NCBI GenBank assembly: GCA_001003475.1
Contig: LCPF01000001.1
Location: 37,910-101,909 of the forward strand
DNA length: 64,000 nucleotides
Reading direction: 5' to 3'
Source: Candidatus Jorgensenbacteria bacterium GW2011_GWA1_48_11
GTDB lineage: Bacteria > Patescibacteriota > Minisyncoccia > UBA6257 > GWB1-50-10
The position numbers were made by a program, and so were the translations under genes. Positions 1 through 16,932 of the stretch are shown here, piece after piece. Position 1 is the stretch's first letter. The number at the start of each line of letters is the position of its first letter. Below the pieces are notes generated by a model, which worked only from the letters and a program-made list of their open reading frames with translations, had not been told where the DNA came from and ran no database searches.

Positions 1-240
1 CTTTTGCTTTTGTCGTCTTTCGTTATCAAATTTTGTTTCTGCAAATAATAAAGAATGTTGTAAAACCTCTGTTTCTCCTTAAGTTTATTGATTGCGGAAG
101 ATGATTCAGAAAACCTTTCGCTGCGCATTTTTCGATAAGAGTCCTGATAGCCAGAGGTAACCACGTCTATAATGTTGGCCGTCGCGGAAATAGAATTATC
201 TATGGTTCTCAAAATTTTGAATGTCAAATCTCCTTTCATA
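1..240 (-). CDS. hypothetical protein, N-terminal part only (gene continues beyond window start)
   Basis: Hand translation of minus strand from ATG at 238-240 gives an open frame (MKGDLTFKILRTIDNSISATANIIDVVTSGYQ...) with no stop to position 1. It is absent from the ORF track because no stop lies inside the window. No recognisable motif; AT-rich. Confidence 0.3.
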
Positions 241-261
241 TTTTTAAAATATTGGTGGTAT

Positions 262-297
262 TACTATTATATCGGACGATCGTCCGGTATAATAGTA
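262..297. repeat. 36-bp near-perfect palindrome (TACTATTATATCGGACG|ATCGTCCGGTATAATAGTA), centre at 279/280
   Basis: Direct base-by-base pairing check: 17 of 18 pairs are complementary (272/287 T:G is the only mismatch). It lies in the intergenic region between a divergent minus-strand ORF start (240) and the rpmA promoter. Confidence 0.6.
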
Positions 298-485
298 TTG
301 GCCGAACAAGAGAATGCGGTGAATTGAATCCGATTTTCATTGGGAATTTTTCTCAATGACTATCGGCGCGGGATTGTCCTGCCGGCCCGCCAGGTAACCG
401 AGGCCGAAACTCATGGAAACAAGAACGATCAAAAAAAGCCAGAACAAGATCCACTTTCCCCTTTCCCGAAACCAAAATTTAATGC

Positions 486-515
486 TTGACATGGAGAGGT
501 TTTTGACCATATTAT
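486..515 (+). promoter_or_regulatory. sigma70-like promoter upstream of rpmA (TTGACA -35, 18-nt spacer, TATTAT -10)
   Basis: TTGACA at 486-491 and TATTAT at 510-515, about 22 nt upstream of the GTG start at 538. Confidence 0.45.
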
Positions 516-537
516 AGAACAGTTAAGATAAACACAC

Positions 538-810
538 GTGGCACATACCAAAGCTAAAGGCTCAACCAAGTTAGGCCGCGAATCAGCGGCGCAGCGCTTG
601 GGCGTGAAGATATCGGACGGCGGCGCGGTCGCGCCGGGCGAAATCATCATCCGCCAGCGCGGCAACAAGTACTGGCCGGGCGTAAACGTCCGCCAGGGCA
701 GTGACGACACGCTCTACGCCTTAAAGGAAGGCAAAGTGAAATTCCTGAGCAAGAACAAGATCTCTTTCAACGGCCAGAAAAAAGCCATCAAGGTCGTGAC
801 CGTCGTCTAA
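538..810 (+). CDS. rpmA: 50S ribosomal protein L27
   Basis: MAHTKAKGSTKLGRESAAQRLGVK... is the canonical L27 N-terminus (AHKKG/GSTRNGRDS pattern); about 90 aa; GTG start. Confidence 0.9.
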   Translation: MAHTKAKGSTKLGRESAAQRLGVKISDGGAVAPGEIIIRQRGNKYWPGVNVRQGSDDTLYALKEGKVKFLSKNKISFNGQKKAIKVVTVV

Positions 811-836
811 AAAACCGCCTGTTCGGCGGTTTTTTG
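811..836. terminator. bidirectional intrinsic terminator between convergent rpmA and rplI
   Basis: AAAACCGCC-TGTTC-GGCGGTTTT: GC stem with an A-run upstream and a T-run downstream, sited between the two convergent stop codons (810 and 839). Confidence 0.75.
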
Positions 837-838
837 AT

Positions 839-1279
839 TCATTCGTCTTTTTCCAAGAGAACTCTGACCTTGGCGAGCACGCCCTCGCCCAAATCGACTT
901 CTATTTCGTGCTCGCCCAGGGTTTTCAGGTGATGCGCCAAAACAACGGCTGTATTTTTGAAGCCTTTTTCCGAAAGCAAGGCTTCGACGTCTTTTTTCGT
1001 GACCGAGCCGAAAACTTCGTCCTTTTCCCCGGTTTTGACCTTAAAAACCAAAGCCAATTTCTTTATCTCGGGAATCCTCTGTCTCAGCTCGGCGATCAGC
1101 TTGTTTTTTTCTTCCGCTGCCTTCACCCTTCTTCTTTCCAATTCGGCCAGGGCCGCGGGCGTCGCCGCGCCGGCCAATTTTTTCGGCAGAAGAACGTTCC
1201 GGAAGTAGCCGTCTGCCACATCCTTCACGTCATTTTTCCGCCCCAATCCCCTCACCTCGGCCAAAAGGATAACTTTCAT
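839..1279 (-). CDS. rplI: 50S ribosomal protein L9
   Basis: MKVILLAEVRGLGRKNDVKDVADGYFRNVLLPKKLA matches the conserved L9 N-domain (MKVILL.DV.GLGKKGD...GYARNFL.P.G.A). It ends with TGA, showing that UGA is a stop in this organism. Confidence 0.9.
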   Translation of the reverse strand: MKVILLAEVRGLGRKNDVKDVADGYFRNVLLPKKLAGAATPAALAELERRRVKAAEEKNKLIAELRQRIPEIKKLALVFKVKTGEKDEVFGSVTKKDVEALLSEKGFKNTAVVLAHHLKTLGEHEIEVDLGEGVLAKVRVLLEKDE

Positions 1280-2496
1280 TTCGCCATTTCCGCTTTCAAA
1301 ACCTCGATCGCTTTATCAAGCTGGGGGTCGCGTCCGTTTTCAACGTCGTCGTCGGTCAGCTTCACTTCATAATCGGGCGAGATCCCGACCTTATTGATTT
1401 CATCGCCTTTTGGCGTGAGCCATTTGGCAATCGAGATCTTAACCGAAGAGCCGCCGGGCAAATCATTGACCTCCTGGACGCTCCCTTTGCCGAAAGTTTT
1501 CTCGCCGACGATCTTTACGCCGCGGTTATCCCGCAGGGCGCCGGTCACGATCTCCGAAGCCGAGGCCGAACCGCCGTTCACCAAAAGGACGACCGGTATG
1601 CCGGCAAGGGCGGCGTTGCCGTCGGCCAGATTATCCTGGTAATTGCCCGGCGAAAATTGTTCGCGGACAATGAGACTGCCCCGCTTCAAGAACCAACCCG
1701 CGACATCGTCGCCGACCTCGAGAAACCCGCCGGGATTGTTGCGCAGGTCCAAAACCACGCCCTTCGCGCCCTTCAAAAGCGCCGAGAGCGCGCCCTCATA
1801 AAAAAGCTGGGGCACGTTGGCGTTGAAATTATAAAGATGGAAGACTGCGATCTGGCCCGGCTTCATCTCCCAGTCCAGGGTCGGCACCTGGACGATCGCC
1901 CTCACGATCTTGAAATCCTTGGCTTCGGCCCAGCCGTCACGCATGATGGTCAAGGTGACGGCCGTGCCGGGTTCGCCGCGGATCGTCTTAACGGCGCTGT
2001 TGATGTCCATGTCCAGGGTGGAAGTGCCGTTGATGCTCAAAATCTCGTCGCCGGCCTTGAGGCCCGCCGCTTCGGCGGGATTATTCTTCAAGGGGGCGAT
2101 AACAACAAGTTGATTGTTTCGAATGCCCAGTTCGGCGCCAATGCCGCCAAAACTGCCGCTCAAGTCCTGATTGAATTTAGCCGCGTCGCTGGGCGGAAAA
2201 AACACGGAATAAGGGTCGCTTAGGGCGCCCAAAACGCCCTTGATCGCGCCGTACAGCAAATCCTGATCGCTCACGTCTTTGATGTCCACGTACTTGCTCT
2301 TGACGAGACTAACGGCGTCCCAAAGTAAAGACGAATCAACGCTCAAAGGAGTGTTACCCGTCGCGTTTACCGAAACGGCGACGCTTTTAGTTTTACCGAA
2401 AATAAAACCGCCATAAAAAATCCCGCCAGCTAAAACCACGGCCAGCAAGGTCAGCGCCGCGATTTTTATTCTTTTGCCTTTAATGATTTTCGGCAT
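1276..2496 (-). CDS. S41 family C-terminal processing peptidase (PDZ domain, N-terminal membrane anchor)
   Basis: N-terminal TM helix; PDZ-like segment (GAELGIRNNQLVVIAPLKNNPAEAAGLKAGDEILSING); S41 catalytic region with a GGSASASE Ser motif; overlaps rplI by 4 nt. Confidence 0.8.
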   Translation of the reverse strand: MPKIIKGKRIKIAALTLLAVVLAGGIFYGGFIFGKTKSVAVSVNATGNTPLSVDSSLLWDAVSLVKSKYVDIKDVSDQDLLYGAIKGVLGALSDPYSVFFPPSDAAKFNQDLSGSFGGIGAELGIRNNQLVVIAPLKNNPAEAAGLKAGDEILSINGTSTLDMDINSAVKTIRGEPGTAVTLTIMRDGWAEAKDFKIVRAIVQVPTLDWEMKPGQIAVFHLYNFNANVPQLFYEGALSALLKGAKGVVLDLRNNPGGFLEVGDDVAGWFLKRGSLIVREQFSPGNYQDNLADGNAALAGIPVVLLVNGGSASASEIVTGALRDNRGVKIVGEKTFGKGSVQEVNDLPGGSSVKISIAKWLTPKGDEINKVGISPDYEVKLTDDDVENGRDPQLDKAIEVLKAEMAK

Positions 2497-2520
2497 TTTA
2501 TTATTGAAACAAAATATCCG

Positions 2521-3093
2521 TCAAAAATCAACGCCGAATAATTTGTCATAAACCGCGCCGGCGGGACGCAAATGCGATTCTACCAGATCCAAACCTTGAG
2601 CTTCGTAATGCCAATCCAGTTTTTGTTCGATGGGCGGCAAGTTTCCCAGCGACGTCCCGCCAAACCTGGCCAGCGTCAAATGAGAAAAATAAACGCCCCG
2701 GTGCTCCTGCCACCGGACGCCCTTATTTTTCAGATTGTCGTCCAAAAATTGTTTGATCTTGCCAAGCCAGCCGGATGTTTCAACCGTTCCCGTGAGCCAA
2801 ATCGTTCGTCTCACGTCGTTGAACCGCTGCCCGAACGGCCCGTAAACTAACCGGTCGAAATCGATGCGAAAGCCGCCGGGACGAACAATTTCGGCCATGG
2901 CCGCTTTGATCAAAGGCACGGCCGACTCCGGCTCAGAACCCAGGAAACTCACCGTAAAATGCCAATTTTCTTCCGCTACCCAGCGGATATCGCCGCGGCC
3001 GCGAAAAAGCGGCCGAATCAGATCCACCATTTCCCGAATTTTAAATCTGATCTCTTCGGGAACCGCAACGGCAATGAAAAGCCGCAAGTTCAT
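2521..3093 (-). CDS. thpR: RNA 2',3'-cyclic phosphodiesterase (2H phosphoesterase, LigT/ThpR family)
   Basis: Two H-x-T-x motifs typical of the 2H superfamily (HFTVSFLG and HLTLARFG); about 190 aa. Confidence 0.7.
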   Translation of the reverse strand: MNLRLFIAVAVPEEIRFKIREMVDLIRPLFRGRGDIRWVAEENWHFTVSFLGSEPESAVPLIKAAMAEIVRPGGFRIDFDRLVYGPFGQRFNDVRRTIWLTGTVETSGWLGKIKQFLDDNLKNKGVRWQEHRGVYFSHLTLARFGGTSLGNLPPIEQKLDWHYEAQGLDLVESHLRPAGAVYDKLFGVDF

Positions 3094-3593
3094 TCTCTTC
3101 CAAGTTTGGCCGAGGTCCTCAAATTCTTCGCCCGATCGATGAAAAGCTTCCCGTCCAGATGGTCGATTTCATGCTGAAAGACCCGCGCCAAAAGACCCCA
3201 GGCCTTGATCTTTATTTTTTTGCCTTGCAGATTCTGGCCTTGAATCGTGATCCGCGCCGGCCGCTCCACCGGGCCGTAAGTTTCGGGCACGCTCAAACAG
3301 CCTTCTTCGAGCGAGACGGTTTCTTTGGAAACCTTGAGAATTTCCGGATTCAGCACGGCATAAAACTTGGGACGGCCGTTGTCGTCCGGCACTTGGGCGA
3401 CGAAAATCCTTTTCTGAACGCCAATCTGATTGGCCGACAAACCGATGCCGTTCGCCTCTTTCATGGCCCGGCGCATGCTCTTAATGAGCGTCTGAAGCTC
3501 CTTTTTCCCCTGCGGCTCCAAACGAAACGGCCCGAGTTTTCCCCTCAGAATCTTTTCTTCCTTTTTATTTGTGTTTAACAGGATTTCTGCCAT
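3090..3593 (-). CDS. def: peptide deformylase
   Basis: All three PDF motifs are present: GIGLSANQIG (motif I), EGCLSVPE (motif II) and QHEIDHLDG (HExxH motif III). Confidence 0.9.
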   Translation of the reverse strand: MAEILLNTNKKEEKILRGKLGPFRLEPQGKKELQTLIKSMRRAMKEANGIGLSANQIGVQKRIFVAQVPDDNGRPKFYAVLNPEILKVSKETVSLEEGCLSVPETYGPVERPARITIQGQNLQGKKIKIKAWGLLARVFQHEIDHLDGKLFIDRAKNLRTSAKLGRE

Positions 3594-3885
3594 TGGTCTT
3601 CGCGGTTTTCTTGGCGTCCAGCCAGAAAACCTTTTCCTTTTTCACAAGAGAGAGGAAAAGCGCGGGCTTGTTGGGAAATTCGGCTTTTTTGACTTCGTTC
3701 CAGATTTCGTAAACCGCCTGCTGGCCCTTAGCTCTGATGATTTTCAAAATTGCCGGAAAGGTTATTTCTTTTCCGAAAAAGAGCCAAATTTCTTCCGCCA
3801 AAGCTTGTTCCCGATTGGGCGGACGCTTTTCTTTTCGCCGCGCTTTCAAAACATCCAAATAATCTTCGCCCGGTGATTTTCCCAT
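3565..3885 (-). CDS. hypothetical protein
   Basis: 106-aa ORF overlapping the def start by 29 nt; no recognisable motif; lysine-rich C-terminus. Confidence 0.4.
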   Translation of the reverse strand: MGKSPGEDYLDVLKARRKEKRPPNREQALAEEIWLFFGKEITFPAILKIIRAKGQQAVYEIWNEVKKAEFPNKPALFLSLVKKEKVFWLDAKKTAKTNGRNPVKHK

Positions 3886-3907
3886 AACTTCATCTTATAA
3901 TAAACCT

Positions 3908-4192
3908 ATGAATCCCGTTAGAGGCAACCAATTCTATTATATCTATGTCTTACGGAGCAAAAAGAATAAAATTTGGTATACAGGGCTGGCCGTTGATTTG
4001 CGGAAACGCTTTAATCAACACAGCAAAAACATCATTGGCTGGACCAAGAATAGAGGTCCTTTTGAACTGATTTATTATGAAGCCTGCAAAAATATCACTG
4101 ACGCAAGGTCGAGAGAAAAATACCTTAAATCTGGCATGGGTAAGCGATATCTCAAAAACAGATTAAAGCGCTTCCTGCCTCTAACGGGATGA
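3908..4192 (+). CDS. GIY-YIG nuclease family protein (YhbQ/UPF0213-like), copy 1
   Basis: YYIYVLRS...IWYTGLAVDLRKRFNQH...REKYLKS: GIY-YIG catalytic core with conserved R and E/K residues. Its stop overlaps the fmt start (ATGA). Confidence 0.75.
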   Translation: MNPVRGNQFYYIYVLRSKKNKIWYTGLAVDLRKRFNQHSKNIIGWTKNRGPFELIYYEACKNITDARSREKYLKSGMGKRYLKNRLKRFLPLTG

Positions 4193-5049
4193 AATATGCA
4201 TTTTTCGGCACGCCGGAATTCGCCGCCATCATCCTTCGGGGATTGATTGAGGCTCAGATGCCGCCGACACTCGTGATCTCGAACCCCGATCGGCCCATGG
4301 GGCGGAAAAAAATCGTGATGCCGCCGCCCGCAAAATCAATCGCCGAAAAATCCGGAATCCCGGTTTGGCAGCCGGAGAATTTGGAAATCGGGAACTGGAA
4401 ATCGGAAATCAGCAAACTTGGCGGCGTGGACCTCGGCGTTATTGCGGCTTACGGCAAAATCATCCCAAAGGAAATTCTGGATACCCTGCCCGACAAATTC
4501 ATCGTCGTCCACCCGTCGCTTCTGCCCCGTTGGCGGGGCGCCACGCCCATCCAAAGCGCCATCCTCGCCGGCGACAAGATCACCGGAACAACCTTGTTTC
4601 TGGCCGATGAGAAGATCGACCACGGGCCGATCATTGCCGGGCGGGAGTTTCCAATTTCTCCTTCGACCCCGAGCTCGGGACCGAGGGGCAATTTACAATT
4701 TTCAACACTGCATGATAAACTCGCGGAACTCGGAGCAAAACTCCTCTTAGAAACGTTACCAAAGTTCTTGCGCGGAGAAATCAAAGCGCAGGCACAAAAT
4801 GAGGAATACGCCACTTATACCAAAAAGTTCTCGACCGATGACGCTTATGTTGATCTGGCCAAGGACGATCCAATAGCGATCGAAAGAAAGGTTCGGGCCC
4901 TTAACCCGGAACCGGGCGTTTGGACCCTTCAACAAGCTCAAGGCAAGCCAAAAAGAATGAAGATTTTGGAGGCGGAACTGACTGACGGTAAATTAAGGCT
5001 CAAAAAAATCCAGTGGGAGGGCAAAACGCCGCAAGATTTACAGATTTAA
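4189..5049 (+). CDS. fmt: methionyl-tRNA formyltransferase
   Basis: N-terminal formyltransferase domain (FFGTPEFAA...; HPSLLPRWRGATPIQSAIL containing the SLLP motif) and a C-terminal Fmt domain; two short lineage-specific insertions. Confidence 0.9.
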   Translation: MKYAFFGTPEFAAIILRGLIEAQMPPTLVISNPDRPMGRKKIVMPPPAKSIAEKSGIPVWQPENLEIGNWKSEISKLGGVDLGVIAAYGKIIPKEILDTLPDKFIVVHPSLLPRWRGATPIQSAILAGDKITGTTLFLADEKIDHGPIIAGREFPISPSTPSSGPRGNLQFSTLHDKLAELGAKLLLETLPKFLRGEIKAQAQNEEYATYTKKFSTDDAYVDLAKDDPIAIERKVRALNPEPGVWTLQQAQGKPKRMKILEAELTDGKLRLKKIQWEGKTPQDLQI

Positions 5050-5277: not shown

Positions 5278-5903
5278 TTGCCTAAATTATGCGCCGCCGC
5301 CTCCCAATTCACAACATTCCACCAGGCTTCGACGTACTCGGGCCGGCGGTTCTGGTATTTCAGGTAATAAGCGTGTTCCCAGACGTCCAAGCCCAAGATC
5401 GGCTTTTGGCCTTTCGAGACGGGCGTGTCCTGGTTCGGCGTGGTCATGATCGACAAGCCCTTCGACTCGCTTCGCTCGCTCAGGGTTAACCAAACCCAGC
5501 CTGAACCGAAAACTCCGGCGGCGGCATTCGCGAACTGCTCCTTGAATTTCGGAAGGTCGCCGAAAGCGGACTTAATCGCCTCCGCCAACTCGCCCTCTGG
5601 TTCTTTGGGCCTGCCCTGAGTCGCATCGAAGGGCGCCATTAGATCCCAGAACAGGGAATGGTTGTAGTGGCCGCCGCCGTGGTTTCTCACCGCCATCCGG
5701 ACGTCTTCAGGCACCGCTTCCAAATCTTTCAATAATTCTTCAATCGTCTTTACTTCCAATTCGGAATGTTTCGCCAAAGCCTCGTTCAATTTATTGACGT
5801 AAGCCTGGTGATGCTTCGCATAATGGATTTCCATTGTCCGCGCATCAATGTACGGTTCCAAAGCATCGTAAGCATAGAGCAATTTCGGTAATTCGTGTTT
5901 CAT
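5274..5903 (-). CDS. sodA: Fe/Mn superoxide dismutase
   Basis: [36 protein letters not shown] is the canonical Fe/Mn-SOD N-terminus; [19 protein letters not shown] matches the C-terminal metal-ligand region. Confidence 0.9.
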
Positions 5904-5920
5904 TTTTTGATGAATAATTT

Positions 5921-6379
5921 TTATTCGTCGGCTTTAGTATATTTTAGCAAAATCTCTTCGCCGTCCTTAAGGATTATCCCGGCGGGATCGGCGGCGGAAG
6001 CGCCCTCAATTGCCGCCTCCAGCCGATAGCCGGGCCGATCGATATCTCTGCCCCAGACGTTGAAGAAATCTCCCAAAGTATACTTTCGCCGGCTTTGAGA
6101 CTCAATGTGGATAACGCCTTCTGCCGCGTCATCTTTATGGGTGTGAAGGGCGCGTTCGCAAGCGGCACTCAAACCGATTTCAGCCGGAATCGGTTCGCTC
6201 ACGCCGTCGACAAGAATAACAAGCCGGGGATGAATATGCTCCGCGAGCGGCAAATTAGGAAAGAGGCAAGGAACGCTTGGAGAACTTTTTGAAGAATTTA
6301 GTTTCGGATACAAAAAAAGACCGGCGAGCACCAACACGATAACGGCGGTCCAAATAACGGTTGCTTTATTCTTTTTCAT
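5921..6379 (-). CDS. hypothetical membrane-anchored protein
   Basis: N-terminal TM helix ([19 protein letters not shown]); first gene of an apparent three-gene minus-strand unit with sod. Confidence 0.5.
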
Positions 6380-6404
6380 GGTTTATTAATAATAGTACAA
6401 CTTT

Positions 6405-6475
6405 TGCCGGGTCGTCTAACGGTAGGACCGCAGACTCTGGATCTGTGTATCTAGGTTCGAATCCTAGCCCGGCAG
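6405..6475 (+). tRNA. tRNA-Gln (anticodon CTG)
   Basis: Hand-folded cloverleaf: 7-bp acceptor stem (TGCCGGG/CCCGGCA), D-arm, anticodon stem GCAGA/TCTGT with loop CTCTGGA (U33, CTG, G37), 4-nt variable loop, and T-arm CTAGG-TTCGAAT-CCTAG. 71 nt; no encoded CCA. Confidence 0.75.
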
Positions 6476-6515
6476 CACTCGAAACTTTTTATCCCAAGAC
6501 CGAGAGGGGTAACAG

Positions 6516-9356
6516 CTAACTCAAAAGACCGCGCTTCACCACAACCGCTCTTAAGGTGGAGAGGTCGTCTTTCAGCTCAAATGACTTTTCTAATCGCGGG
6601 TCGTTTGCGATACCAGCCCAAAAAGCAAGCTTTGCTTTAACTTCTTTATCGTCTACATGCGATTGTTTTGTTATTGAGATAAGCGTCTCAAGGGGCATGT
6701 ATAGACCATTGTTTACTTCTGAACCAGAGAAAAACGGATCGCCCTTAAGCACGTCATCAAGGTTTTTCCACCCCTCTTTAAGGGGATACTTACTCCAGTA
6801 CAATTTTATAGCTCCGGGATGTTGCTTTAGTCCTCTACGTGCAGCATTTCGGATTTTATTAATCTCGTTCGTCGCCTCCTTAGATCCCGACCAACTTTGA
6901 TAAAGGACGTAGAAGAAATTTTCCTCGTATTTATAAATAATTTTCTTCCCAAGAAAATATCTTGCTTGCAAATCTTCAAAGACCGATTTTATAGCGTTCT
7001 TAACATCTTGATCGAAGTATTTTAACAGCTTGTCAAAAGCGGCTTCTAAGCGCTGATGTATGGAGCTACCACTACCACGTTCATTATTAGCTAGAGAATT
7101 TAATACAATATACTTCGCGCCAATATTTACAGATGACGAACTTAAAATCTTCTTCAAGATTTTAAGAACAGATTTTAGTCCTTCATCCGCTTTTTCTCCA
7201 CTTTTGTCTTTTTCAATCACGGATAGGATTTGAAAAACAAATTGGTAGATAGCCTCATCATATTCAGTGTCCCCAACGTTCATTGGTTGCAGAACAATCT
7301 TTCCATTCACAAGTCGTTTCCCTAATTCGTCCATGATCCTAATATTCAAATCCTCAGAAACATCCCACATTTCATGCACAAATCTTGCATATCCAACCAA
7401 GTCTTTGTTATTTAGCGTCGAGAGAGTCTTGTTGGATTTATCACTCTGGTGCTGTTGGTAAATTCGGCTGTATTTTCTATATCCCGTCTCAACACTTTCT
7501 GAAACCAACGAGAGATAATCGTGCATTATTTCTGGGTATGACGTGGTCCCAGAATATTGAATTTTGTTTTTTGTGTCATAACTTCTTTGCAGAAAATCAA
7601 GATAATAATGCATAACAAGTCCGATATATTTCTCAGTATTAATTTTTTCCTCATCCGAAAGCGTCCTTCCAATAATTGATTCAACCCAACCAATCAGTCC
7701 TGTCTTTTTTTCCTCCAATTCTTTCTTAATAAGATAACCGCCTAAATTGTCTTTTTCTGTTTGTGCAATAAGTAAATGGATTGTTTTCATAAAAAATTCG
7801 ATAAGAAATGGATGCTGGATCTTGATAAATTCCAACATAGTAACGTCACTAAATCGAATCGCATTTACCTTTTGTCCACCACTTCTGTCCCTAAACGATC
7901 CATAGAAAAACTCCAGGGCGGTAGAAACTCGAGCAACTACTCTAGGCGACTGCTCGGCAAGAACTCCAACCACGTAACCCATGGCGTCACTGTGTTTTCC
8001 CATGAAGGAAATGTTTGGGTGTGAAAAGGTATGTGGATAAATTTCTGTAGGAGTATCAACGCCTTCACTCTTCGCGATATTTGTTAACAAATCGTCGACA
8101 TATTTATATCTAATTAGTGGCTCAACTGGTGGAAGAAATATTCTCTGCACAACACTTTTCGGATCGTCATAAAAGAAGGTTTGCAGCGGCCGAACACGCG
8201 AATCTACGCTTTCGAATGTCTGCAAATGCTTTCTAAATTCTGGCTCTGAGATACAAAAAATAAAAATCAACTTTATGGGAAGGCCAGATCTTCCTTCGTT
8301 TTTGAAACGCTCAACAATTTCAACGAGGCGATATATTTCATCAAGCTGTCCTCGCTCAATCTCATCCACCATGATAATCCATAGCAACTCTTTAATTTCA
8401 GGAATATTTCCAAAAATCCTACCGACTATTTTTGAGGTAAATACTTTCTTGTCACCGTAAAATTGATCGTATGCGACGGCCCTTGTTTTTATCAACCCCC
8501 AATTAAAAAGCGACAGTATCTTGAGAAGGTCCGACAAAAGTCCATTTCCTGATTCTCGAAGAATTGACTGCATGAACGGAAGATACGATGCGACATCCAA
8601 TTTGGGGTATCTTTCTGTGAGGGTTTCGATCCAACGTTCCGCAAAAAGCCTAGAAAAATCTTTTGCCTCATTTGTTTCCGTAAGCGAAATATAGGTATAT
8701 AAAGTTTTTATTGGATCGAAGTTTTCGATAATCATCCTTGCATAAGACGACTTACCAAAACCAAGTCCTCCATAAATTCCAACAACATTCACATAATTAT
8801 TGAGTTTTTTAAGGCCGCTTGCCGCGTTCTTTGCTGAGGGTTCAAAAGTTAGCTTGTCATCTTTTGGTCCGACCGCCCCCGCGGCAAAGTTTCTAAAGGT
8901 AAGATCGGGAGATTGACATAAATGCTCGTTCAGCTTTTTTAAGAGCATTGTTATCAGTGCCAGCACTAGGCCGATCCAGCAATATCCTGACAACCAAAAT
9001 TCAGTCGGGTGGGCTATTAAGGCGACGGCCGACCACAGGATTAGACCATTCACAAACCCCCAATAAAAATAGAAAACCCATGAAGGCTGGTTGTGTAGCC
9101 CTTGCTTTTTTAACTGAGCCGCTGGTCTTATAAAAAAATGGATTAAACCAATGACAATCAGTAAAGCGAGAGTACCAAGAACAATGAAGATGGTTTGGTT
9201 TGCATAAAATAAATCCGTAACTAAATCCCGGATTGGAGGTCCAAATTTATAAAACAAGAGGAAGTTAAGGAACGAGATGGAGACAACCCAAAACAACCTC
9301 CACGCAAAAAGGTGTTTGTAGAATATGTCAAGCCCCGGCAGTGATTTATCCTCCAT
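6516..9356 (-). CDS. membrane-anchored P-loop NTPase, KAP/STAND-like (946 aa)
   Basis: Four predicted N-terminal TM helices. Walker A GGLGFGKSS (GxxGxGKS) about 45 aa after the last TM, and Walker B IIMVDEIER (hhhhDE). A roughly 500-aa alpha-helical C-terminal region. AT-rich relative to flanking genes. Confidence 0.6.
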   Translation of the reverse strand: MEDKSLPGLDIFYKHLFAWRLFWVVSISFLNFLLFYKFGPPIRDLVTDLFYANQTIFIVLGTLALLIVIGLIHFFIRPAAQLKKQGLHNQPSWVFYFYWGFVNGLILWSAVALIAHPTEFWLSGYCWIGLVLALITMLLKKLNEHLCQSPDLTFRNFAAGAVGPKDDKLTFEPSAKNAASGLKKLNNYVNVVGIYGGLGFGKSSYARMIIENFDPIKTLYTYISLTETNEAKDFSRLFAERWIETLTERYPKLDVASYLPFMQSILRESGNGLLSDLLKILSLFNWGLIKTRAVAYDQFYGDKKVFTSKIVGRIFGNIPEIKELLWIIMVDEIERGQLDEIYRLVEIVERFKNEGRSGLPIKLIFIFCISEPEFRKHLQTFESVDSRVRPLQTFFYDDPKSVVQRIFLPPVEPLIRYKYVDDLLTNIAKSEGVDTPTEIYPHTFSHPNISFMGKHSDAMGYVVGVLAEQSPRVVARVSTALEFFYGSFRDRSGGQKVNAIRFSDVTMLEFIKIQHPFLIEFFMKTIHLLIAQTEKDNLGGYLIKKELEEKKTGLIGWVESIIGRTLSDEEKINTEKYIGLVMHYYLDFLQRSYDTKNKIQYSGTTSYPEIMHDYLSLVSESVETGYRKYSRIYQQHQSDKSNKTLSTLNNKDLVGYARFVHEMWDVSEDLNIRIMDELGKRLVNGKIVLQPMNVGDTEYDEAIYQFVFQILSVIEKDKSGEKADEGLKSVLKILKKILSSSSVNIGAKYIVLNSLANNERGSGSSIHQRLEAAFDKLLKYFDQDVKNAIKSVFEDLQARYFLGKKIIYKYEENFFYVLYQSWSGSKEATNEINKIRNAARRGLKQHPGAIKLYWSKYPLKEGWKNLDDVLKGDPFFSGSEVNNGLYMPLETLISITKQSHVDDKEVKAKLAFWAGIANDPRLEKSFELKDDLSTLRAVVVKRGLLS

Positions 9357-9463
9357 CTAAATATGAACTTCCTTGATTTCTATCTGCGATTTTCCTTCTT
9401 TTCTTGGTTGCTGGAAATTTATCAAAAGACCATCTTTGATTTTGAGGATTTTCATGTAATTTT

Positions 9464-10570
9464 TTATTTTCTCTCAAGTTCCTCAAGCGGAGGATAGGTT
9501 TTTTGTTGGCCTGCGATAAGCTTCGGCACCTCTTTGCCCTCTCCAAGCGCTAGTAATCCCCTGAGTCGTAAATCAATAACTCCGACGTCCATGTACATAT
9601 CCTTATAGGATTTGTAACGTTTTTTCCACGCCTGGTGATGCGCATGAATTTCGGATTTCAAATCTCCAGCAAGCGTTAACAGCTGATGAGCTACGCCGTT
9701 AACTTTGTCGCCATACTCATTTCCTGCCAGATATTTGTAGACTTCGTTTACGGCCCTCATTTTCTCGGCATTGGATAACTTCAGTAGTGCGATCCGCACC
9801 AAGCTTTGCCGCAAAACATATGTGACTGGCTCAACATTTACGGGGCTGATGACAAATACCGTGTTGGAAACGAAATAAGACTGCCTCTTAGCCGGAAAAG
9901 CATTGGTAACGAGAACCGCGAAGTTAGCTTGCCTGAATTCGCGCGCGTCAGCGGCCTGCTGGACATGGTTCTGGCTGAAAGACTTAACCTTTTTGCATTC
10001 GTAAACGATCTTACCGACAGGCTTATCCTGCTCCATAACGGTTTGAATAATATCCCCGCCCTTCCCCGGATGGTCGAAGTGGTCGTGCGGAAATAATTCC
10101 TTAAGTTTTGCTAGAAGCTTGTCTTCTTCGAGTAAGCCTTCAATCTGTGGCGTAATTCCTTTTTCCATTTGCTCTCTCAGGCGTTTTATTTCTTGATCGC
10201 CCTTCTCTTTTTTCTCCAAAGCGATTTTCAAGCTTCGCTCCAATTGCCCCATTTTATTCTTAGTCTGGGCAACGCCTTTCGCGGTTTGCGTTTCCAATTT
10301 CTTCTTAAACGTTTCCTGGTCTAGTTTCCGCTGTTCACGGAAGTTGGCGGCAAGTTTGTGTTTTTCTTCTGCTACGGCGCGCTTTGCGGCACGCTGCAAT
10401 TCAGCCTTCTCTTTTTTCCATAATTCGGCTTTGCGCTTTAATTCTTTTCGCTCCTCTTCGAGGTGTTTAATCTCTTCATGTTTCGCTTTCCAAATACCGA
10501 GGGCTTTATCATATTCCTCCTGAGTCAACGGCTTACCGCATACGGGGCATTTTTTTGTTTGGTTTTCCAT
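9464..10570 (-). CDS. DUF2130-like protein: N-terminal CPxCG zinc-knuckle, long coiled coil, C-terminal PD-(D/E)xK-like domain
   Basis: KCPVCGKPL at the N-terminus; about 130 aa of K/E-rich heptad-like sequence; C-terminal GGDIIQ...(18 aa)...YECKKV fits a D...E-x-K nuclease motif. Confidence 0.5.
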   Translation of the reverse strand: MENQTKKCPVCGKPLTQEEYDKALGIWKAKHEEIKHLEEERKELKRKAELWKKEKAELQRAAKRAVAEEKHKLAANFREQRKLDQETFKKKLETQTAKGVAQTKNKMGQLERSLKIALEKKEKGDQEIKRLREQMEKGITPQIEGLLEEDKLLAKLKELFPHDHFDHPGKGGDIIQTVMEQDKPVGKIVYECKKVKSFSQNHVQQAADAREFRQANFAVLVTNAFPAKRQSYFVSNTVFVISPVNVEPVTYVLRQSLVRIALLKLSNAEKMRAVNEVYKYLAGNEYGDKVNGVAHQLLTLAGDLKSEIHAHHQAWKKRYKSYKDMYMDVGVIDLRLRGLLALGEGKEVPKLIAGQQKTYPPLEELERK

Positions 10571-10583
10571 AGATATAGTTGGA

Positions 10584-11393
10584 TTACGCCGTGTCTATTT
10601 CTTTGGCGACTTTCTCGATTAAAGATTTCAATGAAACCCGGTCAAGCGTAATTATTTTTTTTGTCCCATAAATAAGGTTGAGCTCTTTCATTAAATCCCT
10701 AATTTTCTCTCTAGATTGTGCAAATTTCTTGTTCCCCCCGAGGTATTCAAGGACGGTAATAAGTATTCGGTCAGACCGCCCCATGGCGCGTTCAAGAACC
10801 TGCTGATAGATATCCTGCATTGAAAGGAGGATGCGGGTGAAATAGTATGGGTCCTTCTTTTTCAAATCGCCGAAGAAACCCGGATCGCGCTCCCACGGCG
10901 CGTAAGTGAGATGGGCGGCCCACCAGAGCCGCGCGATGGCGTGCCTGCGCAAGTCCCGGTCGTTCCCCCTTACAAACCAGTGCTCTAAAAGCTGGTTGAT
11001 GGCGCGCTGCTTGGCGTCGTCTGTTTTGAGGTCTTTGTATTCTCCGGGCAGGCCCCATCGTACAAGTGAGTACTTGCGGAATTCGACGTGGCTTAGGTAT
11101 GCCCAAAGCCTCGGATCGGAAGCCTGAGTTTCGTCTATGGCGCCGTAAAACTCATGGAGAGCTATGGCATTTTCTAGGTCTGTAGCGACCGGGTCCCTCT
11201 TTAGAGCTTTCAAGAATGGGGATTTACCTTGAACGGGGATTGTCGAAAGGAGTAGGTCCTTGTCTTTCACAGGATAGGAATGTTGGAAATAAGTCTTAAG
11301 AGAACTGCCGGAGCGCAGATCGGCCCTCATTTGCTCGATGACCGCCCGCTTGAAGATTTTTTGGTATTGGGTTTTATTCATACTCTCGTTCAT
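10584..11393 (-). CDS. hypothetical protein (island gene C, 269 aa, Trp-rich)
   Basis: Complete ORF that overlaps by 20 nt the 3' end of the upstream ORF 11374..12222 (gene B), which suggests translational coupling; no recognisable domain; conserved-looking WAYLSHVEF...RLWWAAHLTY segment. Confidence 0.55.
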   Translation of the reverse strand: MNESMNKTQYQKIFKRAVIEQMRADLRSGSSLKTYFQHSYPVKDKDLLLSTIPVQGKSPFLKALKRDPVATDLENAIALHEFYGAIDETQASDPRLWAYLSHVEFRKYSLVRWGLPGEYKDLKTDDAKQRAINQLLEHWFVRGNDRDLRRHAIARLWWAAHLTYAPWERDPGFFGDLKKKDPYYFTRILLSMQDIYQQVLERAMGRSDRILITVLEYLGGNKKFAQSREKIRDLMKELNLIYGTKKIITLDRVSLKSLIEKVAKEIDTA

Positions 11394-12222
11394 CGTTGGT
11401 CTCGAGCAACGACCCTATGCTTTGGAATCCCCGTGAGACGGGGTTGTCGAGAATTTTCTGCGCAACATCAAACGGGTCCTTGTCCCTAAGGCCCTTACCG
11501 TCAAGGATGGCCTCCAAACGGCCGAACCAGCTCATGTCCGCGTAGTCGCCGTTCCCGTTCTGTACTTGGTGCACCGCATCGATCAAGACTGGGAAGACTA
11601 TGGAAGCGTGCAACATCCCCTCTGCGAGCTTCTGGCCCCTGACATCCATGTAACTCTGCCAATCGGTTTTTGAAAGGATGACGGTAATTTTCTCGCCTTC
11701 ATAGTCGATCTGCATTGGCCCTTCGTGATGGCTGCCCACTACTATCGACATGAAAGACGAGACCGGTGGCCGGAGAGGATCGAAATTCTTCTCGGCTATG
11801 AACGAAGTGTACCCTCCGACTGCGAGGACATCACCCGCTTCTACGTCGAAAGATGCTCCTTCGTAATCTGGATGGCATTCGCTCGGCTGGTAGCCGGGGA
11901 TGTCCTTGTCGGCGCACACGTAGAAGCCAACCGCCACTCTTTCGCGGACCAGTTTCGACGGAATCATGAACCTGTCGATTGTTTTCCTCGTAGAATAGCT
12001 TGACCGGAAGAAAGTGCTTTGGCATTCGACTTCAGTCACGAATGACGCCTTTCCGTCCCGGATCAGCTCCTCGATCTTCGCGTTCTTCAAATTAAATATC
12101 GGGTTCAGCGTAATCTCGTCTTTTTTTAGTTCATAATGGAAGGGAGCGACGCGGAAAAAACCGCCGAGGTCGTCTTCGTTGCCAAGCACCGGATGCGGGT
12201 ATGATTTTGAATTAACCCTCAT
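11374..12222 (-). CDS. hypothetical protein (island gene B, 282 aa)
   Basis: Complete ORF that overlaps by 11 nt the 3' end of the upstream ORF 12212..13324 (gene A); no recognisable domain; possible metal-binding SHHEG patch. Confidence 0.55.
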   Translation of the reverse strand: MRVNSKSYPHPVLGNEDDLGGFFRVAPFHYELKKDEITLNPIFNLKNAKIEELIRDGKASFVTEVECQSTFFRSSYSTRKTIDRFMIPSKLVRERVAVGFYVCADKDIPGYQPSECHPDYEGASFDVEAGDVLAVGGYTSFIAEKNFDPLRPPVSSFMSIVVGSHHEGPMQIDYEGEKITVILSKTDWQSYMDVRGQKLAEGMLHASIVFPVLIDAVHQVQNGNGDYADMSWFGRLEAILDGKGLRDKDPFDVAQKILDNPVSRGFQSIGSLLETNDEREYE

Positions 12223-13324
12223 AGCTTTCTATGCCTAAGGCATATTTTTTCCTCGACTCGAGCCTCACGGCAAGGCGGATGGTCTGCCCGTTCTTAATGG
12301 AAAGGCCCTTGATCATAGATCCATCTGTTTCATATTTCGCCTTGGAGTCGATGTCCGTCGCTGATTTTATTTCGGCTGGATAGCTGTTGTCGTCGCCGAC
12401 CGCCACCAGCCTTATCCCTCCTTCGCACTCCTCGCGGCCCGTGATTGCGAAATGGTATTCGGGGCCTTCTTTCGTTTTCTGGATGAAGCTCCGGAAGGAT
12501 ATTGCGGAGGTTTTTATCCTGACGCCTTCTTCCCCTCCCGCTTCCGGCCCGGTCGGCCTTCCATGCGGCCCTTTGCCTGGGCCTTTGGGTGGCGTGCGCT
12601 TCACCCCTCCCGGCTCCTTGTTCGTAACTATGCTTTTCCGGATGACTTTTTCCACGTCCGCAGGGGATTCTTCTTTATTCGCGCCGACTTCGCGCCCGCT
12701 TTCCTGGGTTCCTTCCAGGTCGGTCGGATCGAACGCGGCCCCTTGCTGCGGAAGGTAGTCCCTGTCTTCATTGTCTGGCAGGTACTTATCCAACCCCGGG
12801 ATGTCCTGAGGTTCAGTAGTAACGGTCCCTCCCATGCTTTTCAACGATTCCTTTATGAAATCGTCCAGCTCGTGCATGGCCGCCCATCCGTTCTTGGCCC
12901 GGTCCCTGTCCCATTTATCGTGGGCGGGCGGCTCCATGTCTCGGAGAAGCCTGTTGCCGCGCTCGTCGTCACAGATGAAGACTCCGGCGTAAGGCTCCCT
13001 CAGCACGCGGGATGCTTTTTCCGTAACGAGCATTTTCGGCTTCCGGACCATCATGACTTTGCTGGGGTAATTTTCCTGCTTGCGCACGAAAAGCAGGACC
13101 TTCCCGAGGTGCTTCAACTCCTGTTCGAATTTCTGCTCCCAGTTCGTGGCCGCTTCGTAGAAGAATTTCGCGTCCTCCGCATCGAATTCGCTGAACTTCT
13201 CCGGTAGGTTGTCCTTCGTTATGCGGATTTCAGAGCCGTCCTTGACCACTACTTCAAGGTCGCCGTGAAGGATGGCAAGCCAAAAATTTTGAACGCACGC
13301 ATAGAAAGAAACTACCGCATTCAT
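12212..13324 (-). CDS. hypothetical protein (island gene A, 370 aa, with central Gly/Pro/Glu-rich disordered linker)
   Basis: First gene of the island operon. Globular N- and C-terminal parts are separated by a low-complexity segment KEPGGVKRTPPKGPGKGPHGRPTGPEAGGEEG. No recognisable domain. Confidence 0.55.
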   Translation of the reverse strand: MNAVVSFYACVQNFWLAILHGDLEVVVKDGSEIRITKDNLPEKFSEFDAEDAKFFYEAATNWEQKFEQELKHLGKVLLFVRKQENYPSKVMMVRKPKMLVTEKASRVLREPYAGVFICDDERGNRLLRDMEPPAHDKWDRDRAKNGWAAMHELDDFIKESLKSMGGTVTTEPQDIPGLDKYLPDNEDRDYLPQQGAAFDPTDLEGTQESGREVGANKEESPADVEKVIRKSIVTNKEPGGVKRTPPKGPGKGPHGRPTGPEAGGEEGVRIKTSAISFRSFIQKTKEGPEYHFAITGREECEGGIRLVAVGDDNSYPAEIKSATDIDSKAKYETDGSMIKGLSIKNGQTIRLAVRLESRKKYALGIESYEG

Positions 13325-13453
13325 TTTAAGAACAAATACGAGAAGGCGGTTGTATTAAACGCGGAAAAGCTAACCGCACGGCAAATCTCCAACAAGATAT
13401 TGAAAGATCTTAGATACTGAACCAGAGAACGCGGCACTAAAAACTTCTCATCC

Positions 13454-13484
13454 CAAAAACCGGGATGAGCTGATTTCCCCGGTT
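13454..13484 (-). terminator. intrinsic terminator of the 13483..14295 membrane-protein gene
   Basis: On the minus-strand RNA: CCGGG-(13-nt loop)-CCCGG followed by UUUUU. The hairpin overlaps the stop codon. It separates this gene from the island operon, whose promoter region is 13325..13450. Confidence 0.5.
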
Positions 13485-14344: not shown

Positions 14345-16932
14345 CTAACCGGGATTTCTGGCGAATACAGTCCTCGCCAAAAGCTTCCTTACTTCTTCAA
14401 GCAAAAGGATCGAAGCGGCAATCGAGGCCGCGTAAACCCATTCCCAAGCGGTAAGCGGCACCGTATGCAGGAATCGCTGCATAAAAGGATGATAAACCGC
14501 CAAGAACTGCAGCCCGATTATCAAAATCGTCGCACCGACCAAAAACATGTTTTTGAAAGGATTGATGGAAAAGACAGATTTGTCTTCACTCTTGCAATTC
14601 CACGCGTTGAACCACTGGAAAACCGCAAGCGTGGTCAGGGTCATAGTGAGCGCTTTCTCCAAATCACCGTCAAGGTACTGCCTAAACACAAAAAGAGACC
14701 CAAGAGCAATAATGATTCCCATAAACACCATTCGCTTCATCGCGAACGAATCAAGAATATACCTGGCGGGCTTCGCATAGCGGCGGCCGAGCAGGCCGTC
14801 CTCCCGCGGCTCCATCGCGAGCGAGACGTCGAGGAAGCCGTCGGTGACGAAGTTAAGCCAGATAATCTGAACCGGCAAGAGCGGCAGGGGGAGCCCCATG
14901 AACATCGCGCCGGAAATGGTAAGCACCTCCCCGATGCCGGTCGAGAAAAGATAAAGAATAACCTTCCTAATGGTCTTGTAGATATTCCGGCCCTCTTCAA
15001 CGGCGGAAATGACGCTCCCGAAATTGTCGTCCAAGAGCACGAGGTCGGCGGCTTCCTTGGCCACCTCGGTGCCGATTTTTCCCATCGCCACGCCGAGATC
15101 GGCGGCCGCGAGAGAAGGCGCATCGTTTACGCCGTCGCCGGTCATGGCAACCACCTCGCCCCGTTTTCTGAACAGCTCGATGATCCGCATTTTATGTTCG
15201 GGGGTCACGCGCGCAAAAACATTGCAGATTCCGAATTTTTTCGACAATTCTTCATCCGAGAGCTTTTCCAATTCTTCTCCGGTGATGACGCCATCCTTCC
15301 CATCCGCAAGCCCCGCTTCTTCCGCAATCGCACGAGCGGTAATCTTGTGATCCCCGGTGATCATCACGACCCGGATGCCGGCCTGTTTGGCCCTTTCGAT
15401 GGCGCCTTTCACTTCTTCCCGCAACGGGTCTTTCATGCCGAAAAAACCGCCAAAAATAAGCGGCGGCAATTTTCCGCTAGTCACGGAGTCGCCCGCGTCC
15501 GGGTTGATCGCAAAAGCGAGAACCCGAAAACCCCGCTGGGACATGTCGAAAAATACGGCTTCGAGCCCTTCTTTTTCAGCGCCGGAAAGTTTCTCTGATT
15601 TCTTCGCTCGCCAGACGCGATCACAAAGCTCGAGGATCTTTTCCGGCGCGCCAACAACGGTCAGAAAATTCCTGTTTTCAAACCTGTGAATCGTAGCGTG
15701 ATACTTGGTGAGATAATCGAAAGGCAGTTCGGCTATCTTGGGTGATTCCTGCTCGCCATCCCTGAAGCCGATCTTGCGGCCGAACACTCCCAAGGCCGCC
15801 TCGGTCGGGTCGCCGGACACTTTCCAGATATTCTTTCCTTCCACATACATTGCATGAGCATTGGAGCAAAACAAAGCAACTCTTCCCGCCAGCACAAGCT
15901 CCGGATGATTCAATGGCTCGACGGCCGCTCCCTTCAGGAGCACTCTTCCTTCCGGCTCATAGCCGCGCCCCTCAACATCAAATGTCTTTCCGTCAACATA
16001 CACTTTCTCAAGCGTCATCTCATTTTTAGTGAGAGTGCCGGTTTTATCGACGGCGATGATCTTCGCCTGCCCCAACGCCTCGACTGCCTGTAATTTCTTA
16101 ACCAGCACATTGCGCTTAGTCATGCGCCACACTCCCGAAGCCAAAACCAGGGTCATGACTATCGGCAGGCCTTCCGGAATAATCGAGACCGCAAGAGACA
16201 CCACGGTTGCGAACATCTGCCTCAACGATTCTCCGGCGGCAAGACCAAAAACCATAAGAACGGTTCCGATCGAAAACACGGTGATGATGATAAGGCGGGA
16301 AAGACAACAACCGCCTTGCCGTTGCCGCTTGCGATATTGGTACCCTTGAAAATCATGTTCCTTTGGTCATACGCAGAAATGCGAATATTGCCCAACGCAT
16401 CGCTGGTCTTTAAGACCGGAACAGACTCGCCGGTAAGGCTAGCCTCATTAACGCGGAGGGAATTGACGGAGATAAGTCGGGCGTCGGCGGGAATTTTATC
16501 GCCTTCCTGAAGAATGACGACGTCACCGGGAACAATTTCCTTGTCGGGTACGATCATGATTTTACCGTCCCGCAACACCGAAGCGGAAGTCTCCACGAAT
16601 CTCCGGAGAGCCAGCAACGTATATTGAGCTCTTCCTTCCTGAATTGTTCCCACGATCGCGTTGAATATGAGGACCAGGAAAATAATGACCGCATCAGCGG
16701 TCTCGCCCATGAATAAAACAACCGCCGCGGCGGCCATCAAAACATAGATGAGCGGGCTTAAGAACTGCGAAAGAAATATGGAAAATACGCCGGCGACTTT
16801 TGGTTCCGGGAGAGAATTGGGGCCATACCCGACAAGACGCTTACTGGCCTCTTCAAAACTCAGCCCCGATTCGTCAGAATCGAGTTCTTCAAATATCTCC
16901 GACGGTCGTTTCGCATACCAACGAATACTCAT
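14345..16932 (-). pseudogene. P-type cation-transporting ATPase (type II, Ca2+/Mg2+-like) split by a frameshift or small deletion near 16300
   Basis: ORF 16222..16932 encodes the N-terminus, the first TM pair and the actuator domain (LTGESVP), then runs out of frame after GNGKAVVV. ORF 14345..16279 encodes the rest (DKTGTLT phosphorylation site, MITGDHKITA, GDGVNDAPSLAAADLGVAMG, C-terminal TM helices). Its upstream in-frame extension (LSRLIIITVFSIGTV) is the expected M3 helix. About 20 aa of the expected ATG..T..GKIA..TPLQ segment appear to be missing. This could instead be an assembly error. Confidence 0.5.

Follow-up and report, generated by a model that had tools for sequence, protein, structure and literature searches.

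Within the 64,000-nucleotide stretch of DNA analysed here (the window; Candidatus Jorgensenbacteria bacterium GW2011_GWA1_48_11, contig LCPF01000001.1, positions 37,910 to 101,909), a single minus-strand gene (6516..9356; Table 1) very probably encodes an N-terminally membrane-anchored NTPase of the KAP family that stands independent of its neighbours. Taking homology and genomic context together, we lean towards viewing its product as an intact, horizontally acquired and self-contained anti-phage or anti-mobile-element protein with a membrane output. KAP NTPases were predicted to be conflict or defence proteins two decades ago, and a block of phage by such proteins was shown experimentally only in 2025-2026. 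To our knowledge, the immune repertoire of Patescibacteria and other uncultured symbionts is poorly known, with sparse known immunity. The protein represents an undescribed variant of a known protein kind, centred on the candidate phyla radiation (CPR), and not a new type of system. If it is a true defence protein, it would give CPR genomes an immune marker that can be recognised and offer a tractable system for studying how sensing by a KAP NTPase is coupled to the membrane; otherwise, it would just be another divergent KAP member on mobile DNA. Its compact architecture of anchor, switch and helical arm, which is naturally split in places and yields high-confidence models, makes it useful for the study of KAP mechanism.

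Family membership and architecture of the protein

The KAP gene is the sole long open reading frame (ORF) at its site according to the ORF list and its translation, and the encoded protein is 100% identical to an NCBI entry named 'hypothetical protein' from Candidatus Jorgensenbacteria bacterium GW2011_GWA1_4.. (name as abbreviated in the match). Megablast of 5500-10600 against E. coli genomes yielded no match, the window being of CPR and not of enterobacterial origin. About 120 homologue clusters were retrieved for this protein, and an alignment of 66 homologous sequences (25-80% identity) was used for conservation and averaged hydropathy; the family profile likewise consists of 66 members. 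When this profile was compared by hhalign with PifA, whose sequence was taken from the F plasmid (NC_002483), the two aligned over 387 columns (query 154-603, PifA 21-461) with a probability of 97.3% and an E-value of 1.8e-11. The homology starts at a pre-P-loop motif, which is aligned with the motif at the PifA N-terminus (residue 21 onward), takes in Walker A, the soluble insert and Walker B, and continues into the first of the helical domains. Of 50 family members, 38 match the Pfam KAP_NTPase model (PF07693) at E<=0.01 (best 4.3e-12) and 22 match the PADLOC model for PifA (PDLC02361; best E 5.4e-7); a precomputed PF07693 match is also on record for many homologues. The window protein aligns with the PADLOC model over residues 164-214 only (profile positions 14-65 of 720, 18.5 bits). 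On these alignments, the KAP assignment is secure at the family level, and the window protein reads as a homologue of PifA rather than an orthologue.

The original prediction had described the protein as KAP/STAND-like, and only the first half of that label stood. STAND profiles were marginal within the family (NACHT 2/50, nSTAND3 1/50, NPHP3_N 7/50) and none matched the window protein, while the clade carries a KAP-type Walker B extension instead. What it shares with the STAND proteins (NACHT, NB-ARC and Avs-type) is a layout in which a P-loop switch is followed by a helical or repeat sensor, together with weak fold matches to NLR resistosomes (NRC3 and wheat G10). AAA_16 matches six of the 50 members. 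Housekeeping or transporter ATPases were not the best match of the family: ABC_tran matches two of the 50 members (E 0.0077), NCBIfam yielded only scattered single matches, and no housekeeping or transporter ATPase signature was found by Pfam and NCBIfam among these members. Two homologues bear the names 'DMT family transporter' and 'YozB/DUF420', which we rejected as artefacts of the hydrophobic N-terminus (DUF420 matches one of 50 members, E 0.0027).

A profile search against PDB sequences returned only noise (transmembrane-helix designs, the P-loop of NRC3, and YnaI, all with E of at least 0.02), and none of the solved structures in the PDB showed a detectable match in sequence to the clade. 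An AlphaFold2 (AF2) model was built on the family alignment, with a predicted local distance difference test score (pLDDT) of 86.4 and a predicted template modelling score (pTM) of 0.72. When the full model was compared with PDB and BFVD by Foldseek, it gave only weak AAA+/ORC/Cdc6/NLR/SAMD9/BrxC/KAP-like matches (E at least 1.6e-3, with NLR matches at 3e-3 or worse), all with template modelling scores <=0.2 on the query. When 1.84 billion cluster representatives were searched exhaustively with the profile, only 260 proteins reached E<=1e-3, 148 of them E<=1e-30, and by this measure the undescribed clade is small and sharply bounded. Its members come mainly from Patescibacteria of many classes, with sporadic representatives, seen among the loci L008-L037 of our numbering, in metagenome-assembled genomes (MAGs) of other lineages, namely Rickettsiales, Gammaproteobacteria, Elusimicrobia/Endomicrobiales/Elusimicrobiales, Omnitrophota, Bdellovibrionales and UBA10199. 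These carriers outside Patescibacteria are mostly small-genome symbionts, parasites or predators, a bias that may reflect shared niches, mobile elements or the search itself.

Transmembrane (TM) segments were called from hydropathy, positive-inside bias, family conservation and AF2 helices, a strong though indirect basis. The original prediction placed four TM helices ahead of the NTPase motifs, and these segments hold up in the hydropathy profile, the 66-homologue average and the AF2 model (TM1 ~16-36, TM2 ~55-76, TM3 ~93-115 and TM4 ~121-141). Four Kyte-Doolittle peaks of at least 1.6 stand at the N-terminus (residues ~16-36, 55-76, 97-115 and 120-140), and the maximum after residue 160 is 1.15; the family-mean hydropathy shows the same four peaks, with a maximum of 1.0 over the remainder. 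Long AF2 helices cover residues 6-52, 54-75, 93-115 and 125-146. Counted with a strict cut-off, the hydrophobic segments ahead of Walker A number 2-4 in nearly every full-length homologue, and almost none lies behind it. Between Walker A and Walker B, residues 204-326 are soluble and free of hydrophobic segments, and the two or four TM helices that eukaryotic and some bacterial KAP members carry inside the NTPase domain are not present. This is still compatible with KAP membership because PifA also lacks a TM insert in its NTPase. Across the 66 homologues, lysine plus arginine counts are raised in the N-terminal tail (3.4 per sequence), loop 2 (3.3 per sequence) and the stretch after TM4 but not in loops 1 and 3, a pattern that predicts a cytoplasmic location for the N-terminus, for loop 2 and for the NTPase. 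Loop 2 also contains a QPSW motif, in which Q85, S92, W93 and Y96 are conserved.

Beyond the membrane region, the AF2 model contains a five-stranded P-loop core (strands 189-195, 218-224, 325-331, 362-369 and 404-407), with a soluble, low-confidence insert at ~250-323 between the two Walker motifs. Walker A (GGLGFGKSS) and Walker B (IIMVDEIER) were both found where they had originally been recognised, and their key residues (G196, G199, G201 and K202 of Walker A; D331, E332 and R335 of Walker B) are invariant in the 66 homologues. In the hhalign comparison, Walker B aligns with VVMDDLDR of PifA, the D-E-x-E-R of the clade mirroring the DDLDR of PifA. Aravind and colleagues are said to have described, in 2004, a Walker B extension of the form D-[DE]-x-[DE]-R as typical of the KAP family.

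The NTPase is followed by a domain of about 500 residues which had been predicted to be helical and which consists only of helices both in the full AF2 model (residues 455-946) and in a model of the C-terminal 506 residues alone (pLDDT 91.2). Its first third is homologous to the post-NTPase helical region of PifA, where the hhalign alignment reaches query residue 603, and the last ~340 residues of the window protein have no alignment to PifA. This remainder is family-specific, with the motifs GxKYIILNS..RGxGSxIHxRL and EENFFYVLYQxWSG and the conserved residues K748, Y808, E811, Q820, W822 and G824. Foldseek found no significant fold match for the domain, the best (E 0.085) being to generic alpha-solenoids of the cullin, importin and Ric-8 kind. 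The exhaustive search also retrieved many proteins of ~400-430 residues that span profile positions 6-425, i.e. the TM region and NTPase, as well as proteins of ~500-515 residues that span positions 434-935. In three loci, the two parts are encoded by gene pairs overlapping by 8-11 nt (L038, 4710-7521; L039, 4824-7545; L040, 3385-6106), with a TM-KAP NTPase protein of 395-432 residues followed by a C-terminal-domain protein of 506-514 residues. These adjacent pairs, in which the overlap makes the second gene translationally coupled, show the C-terminal helical domain to be autonomous, a unit working together with the membrane NTPase.

Genomic context and the operon question

In the window, the KAP gene is preceded by four genes of the same strand that encode PDC-M33A, PDC-M33B and PDC-M33C/DUF6339, parts of a candidate defence system, and DUF2130, as identified by Pfam and PADLOC scans. 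It had been proposed to be the terminal gene of an island operon, i.e. the effector or sensor of a five-gene unit, and the layout is suggestive of this, as all five genes lie in a row between a hairpin at 13447-13469 and a tRNA-Gln gene, and the junction between DUF2130 and the KAP gene has no convincing terminator. We set the window against 37 further KAP loci from metagenome contigs and GTDB species genomes (38 loci including the window), in which all ORFs were clustered. None of these 37 loci contains a homologue of PDC-M33A, B, C or DUF2130. Conversely, three other Patescibacteria (L042, L043 and L044) carry canonical PDC-M33 loci with the order large serine recombinase, C5 DNA methylase, an ORF of 61-72 residues, A (623-631 residues), B and C, and the KAP gene is absent from all three, including the one that adds the same DUF2130 gene (76% identity). 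The canonical order suggests that PDC-M33 is a methylase-linked cargo module resembling a restriction-modification (R-M) system. The PDC-M33A fragment of the window corresponds only to residues 262-623 of a 623-residue homologue (80% identity), that is, to its C-terminal 362 residues, and thus the module in the window is a 5'-truncated remnant from which the C5 methylase and the recombinase are missing; it is probably dead.

Base composition sets the KAP gene apart as well. Its GC content is 39.5%, as compared with 46-55% for the four upstream genes (a gap of 6-15 points) and ~50% for the flanks, which bears out the earlier remark that the gene is conspicuously AT-rich; in each of the five loci tested, the KAP gene is richer in AT than the DNA on either side. 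Because none of the four upstream genes recurs in the 37 loci, the composition differs and a 107-nt gap separates the KAP gene from DUF2130, we consider that the KAP gene moves independently and that the module at 9464..13324 forms no part of the KAP system, as judged from these comparisons. The operon proposal consequently fell, and a five-gene unit now seems highly unlikely. The backbone of recombinase, ParB-methylase and S24 that is met beside the KAP gene elsewhere carries PDC-M33 as cargo in L043, and thus the KAP and PDC-M33 modules occupy equivalent cargo positions.

Outside the window the KAP gene stands on its own, and only two kinds of neighbour recur near it, both of them in Patescibacteria and Gammaproteobacteria MAGs. 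One is a large serine recombinase, found no further than 6 kb from the KAP gene in 12 of the 38 loci (within 200 bp in L003/L004, L007, L013 and L025/L034); the other is a ParB-N6_N4 methylase and HTH_Tnp_1_2 pair, present in six. Type I R-M genes form a further association. In L009 (4608-12802, Saccharibacteria) and L038 (1-7521, an unassigned metagenome contig), the KAP gene has the hsdR-hsdM-hsdS genes immediately upstream, encoded on its own strand with gaps of 4-7 nt; in L032 (7119-12718, Omnitrophota), it has hsdR upstream, again on its strand, at a distance of 60 nt. In the Parcubacteria locus L013 (1206-12811), a type I R-M system is found just past the recombinase. PrrC is embedded in hsd loci, which this arrangement recalls, and by analogy a functional coupling is possible. 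Other immediate neighbours of the KAP gene are RE_LlaMI together with a C5 methylase, a fusion of a Schlafen-group-3 helicase with an S24 peptidase, and a LexA-S24-C5-methylase fusion. It should be noted that in L003, a CPR-like contig, the KAP gene is flanked (1-4922 and 16103-16828) by a SpvB/RHS/YD-shell polymorphic toxin of >2,400 residues and by Ntox44-domain and CHAP-domain proteins, a conflict-gene neighbourhood. Frameshifts or stop codons have split five homologues (L014, L018, L023, L029 and L030) into 2-3 ORFs, which fits the reported proneness of prokaryotic KAP genes to decay. Overall, the context, composition, decay and patchy spread bear the hallmarks of an accessory or defence gene that moves horizontally, in support of the earlier placement of this AT-rich gene in an island, which reads as horizontally acquired.

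The same neighbourhoods could also mean that the KAP protein serves its carrier element, whether in entry exclusion, in maintenance or addiction, or in competition between integrative elements with large serine recombinases. Its tight adjacency to these recombinases and the ParB-N6_N4/HTH_Tnp_1_2 backbone in six loci are both consistent with such a role, as is the example of PifA, which is plasmid-borne and whose primary role may not be phage exclusion (PMC13552941). However, neither recombinase nor backbone is present near the intact gene in the window, L001, L005, L009, L017 or L033, and a location beside R-M operons is characteristic of host defence islands, so we regard service to the carrier as unlikely. 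Far less probable still is a role unrelated to defence, in which the protein would be a Kidins220-like scaffold or signalling NTPase of the membrane and contribute to cell-surface biology in bacteria that depend on a host (such as CPR, Rickettsiales, Omnitrophota and Bdellovibrionales). Although the spread is biased to small-genome symbionts, parasites and predators and some loci are embedded among housekeeping genes, a scaffold would be difficult to reconcile with the patchy distribution (a few hundred representatives in 1.84 billion clusters), the pseudogenised copies, the atypical composition in every genome tested and the lack of a conserved non-mobile neighbourhood.

Candidate mechanism and comparison with known systems

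A defence or conflict function of the KAP protein is probable, as judged from homology and analogy. The original prediction had suggested a role in defence or abortive infection, and this is still the best inference from the PifA homology, the contexts of the homologues and the behaviour of other KAP NTPases (PMC13552941). Protection against phages has been demonstrated for KAP NTPases whose C-terminal regions are uncharacterised, and it depends on both Walker B and that region (PLoS Biol 2026, PMC13552941), the exclusion of T7 by PifA involves altered membrane permeability (PMC8829019, PMC13001434), and Tmn, a YobI-family membrane NTPase of the P-loop type with helical sensor arms, is a defence protein in which ATP turnover is coupled to a membrane or ion effect, namely plasmolysis (PMC13001434). 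Based upon the PifA homology, the 2026 protection data and the analogy with Tmn, we propose that the helical C-terminal domain would recognise an invader-derived protein or state, whereupon the KAP NTPase would change its nucleotide state or oligomerise. Conserved juxtamembrane elements (the loop-2 QPSW motif and the pre-P-loop motif), as candidate couplers, would relay the signal to the four-helix bundle, and infection would be stopped by permeabilisation of the membrane or leakage of ions, or by keeping DNA from entering at the membrane. A single-protein system that senses, switches and acts is by these analogies the most likely reading, while its membrane-effector step specifically is tentative and, in our view, doubtful.

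A number of points weigh against this reading. The window protein itself scores 14.8 bits against Pfam KAP_NTPase (E 0.018, residues 175-352), below the gathering cut-off of 20, and no PADLOC or NCBIfam model recognises the clade beyond the weak PifA match. The homologues of L005, L017 and L033 sit among housekeeping genes. No homologue was detected in GenBank phages or PLSDB plasmids by tblastn or in IMG/VR by a pattern scan, and therefore prophage- or plasmid-borne status could not be shown. The function proposed for the clade is read from homology and context, and the label of 'sensor' for the C-terminal domain is an assumption because that domain has no detectable relative of known function. 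In addition, EF_KAP, a KAP NTPase with one N-terminal TM helix, a second TM helix inside the KAP domain and a C-terminal region of 322 residues, was reported not to act by abortive infection (PMC13552941). Lastly, the TM helices of the clade keep their hydrophobicity and not their sequence, which fits a plain anchor as well as an effector.

This last point bears upon the main alternative to a membrane effector, in which the TM helices merely tether the protein and the NTPase regulates the C-terminal domain as the actual effector, with no suicide or membrane damage. A model of this kind was proposed for EF_KAP and other proteins composed of KAP plus a region of unknown function, for which Walker B and the C-terminal region are both needed and protection is equal at low and high multiplicity of infection (PMC13552941). 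The clade itself offers further support, as the TM sequences are poorly conserved, the C-terminal motifs are strongly conserved and the C-terminal domain can be a separate protein. However, that domain is all-helical, resembles only generic solenoid or scaffold folds and has no nuclease-, protease- or NADase-like signature, while almost every full-length member, even at 25% identity, keeps the four-helix bundle and its position, which exceeds the needs of a single-helix tether. On balance, tethering alone strikes us as rather unlikely. At the other extreme, the protein could be imagined as an NTP-gated immune effector, a 'resistosome-like' KAP in which the C-terminal arm senses and the helix bundles of oligomers form a pore or ion-export path, exchanged preferentially among ultra-small host-dependent bacteria (CPR, Rickettsiales, Omnitrophota, Endomicrobia and Bdellovibrionales) and acting in several genomes as a back-up guard of type I R-M, like PrrC. 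We consider this elaborate scenario improbable.

Classical KAP NTPases (Kidins220/ARMS and bacterial relatives) reportedly have two or four TM helices inside the NTPase domain, and their genes are likewise said, in the account attributed to Aravind and colleagues of 2004, to tend towards mobile elements and pseudogene decay. The clade belongs to the same NTPase family and shares the membrane anchoring, the cytoplasmic P-loop, the mobile-element linkage and the pseudogene decay, but the TM bundle is inserted in the classical proteins and N-terminal in the clade, where residues 204-326 are soluble. The original prediction had called the topology unusual, which is apt in that it differs from that of classical KAP proteins; it is less unprecedented than was supposed, given that PifA has no TM helices and EF_KAP has an N-terminal one. 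PifA and the window protein are both single large proteins on horizontally moving DNA, but PifA (741 residues) is without TM helices (PMC13001434), whereas the clade has four at the N-terminus, and PifA has a repressor partner, pifC, with no counterpart in the KAP system of the window.

EF_KAP, compared here by its published description, is similar in combining a TM anchor, a KAP NTPase and a large C-terminal region within a single gene linked to a serine recombinase. It differs in that all four helices of the clade precede the NTPase and the C-terminal domain has ~500 residues, in the recombinases, which are large near the clade (430-560 residues, Resolvase+Recombinase+Zn_ribbon) and small for EF_KAP, and in the hosts, which for the clade are CPR and other uncultured lineages. 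Tmn resembles the clade in being a single-protein membrane NTPase and serves as a mechanistic analogue; it belongs to another NTPase family, and its two TM helices are inserted after Walker A (PMC13001434), where the clade has no TM segment. The Tmn model of PADLOC gave no match among the 50 family members.

Gene surroundings in the window

Table 1. Positions of the KAP gene, its encoded regions and the adjoining features (window coordinates; residues refer to the KAP protein)
Feature	Position	Strand	Basis or remark
KAP-family P-loop NTPase gene	6516..9356	-	Complete ORF, ATG start, 946 aa plus stop
Four-helix TM region, residues 16-141	8934..9311	-	Hydropathy, family average, homologue conservation, AF2
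Pre-P-loop motif RFAxGxVG..D167.L.F..SA, residues 154-175	8832..8897	-	F157, D167 and A175 invariant or nearly so
KAP P-loop NTPase core, residues ~172-435	8052..8843	-	AF2, Pfam, hhalign
Walker A GGLGFGKSS, residues 196-204	8745..8771	-	Follows strand 189-195
Walker B IIMVDEIER, residues 327-335	8352..8378	-	KAP-type extension, pattern hhhhD-E-x-E-R
C-terminal all-alpha domain, residues 441-946	6519..8036	-	AF2; putative sensor or scaffold
Intergenic gap upstream of KAP gene, 107 nt	9357..9463	-	Sequence read
tRNA-Gln(CTG)	6405..6476	+	ARAGORN; 39 nt past KAP stop codon, opposite strand; island edge
DUF2130	9464-10570	-	Pfam/PADLOC scans
PDC-M33C/DUF6339	10584-11393	-	Pfam/PADLOC scans
PDC-M33B	11374-12222	-	Pfam/PADLOC scans
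PDC-M33A, 5'-truncated	12212-13324	-	Matches positions 249-625 of 627-position model

A Shine-Dalgarno-like element, AAGGA, is positioned ~11 nt ahead of the ATG of the KAP gene. A promoter scan also returned a sigma-70-like match at 9477..9448, which is only suggestive because promoter and terminator matches around the gene were no more numerous than in shuffled sequence. The tRNA-Gln gene marks one edge of the island, and the hairpin between the MASE3 gene and the truncated PDC-M33A gene, which is strong and terminator-like (minus strand, a 10 bp stem followed by a T-run), forms its other boundary. A search of the window for att-like direct repeats or a duplicate of the tRNA-Gln 3' end yielded nothing convincing, and the window contains no integrase; thus, the island looks like a fixed remnant. 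Ordinary housekeeping genes adjoin it on both sides, namely L9, an S41 protease, def, fmt and superoxide dismutase on one and the MASE3 protein, a P-type ATPase, FtsX/FtsE and PrfB on the other. The P-type cation ATPase (14345-16932, minus strand) is present as two overlapping ORFs in different frames, one of 236 residues (16222-16932) and the other of 644 residues (14345-16279), and is either a frameshift pseudogene or the product of an assembly error.

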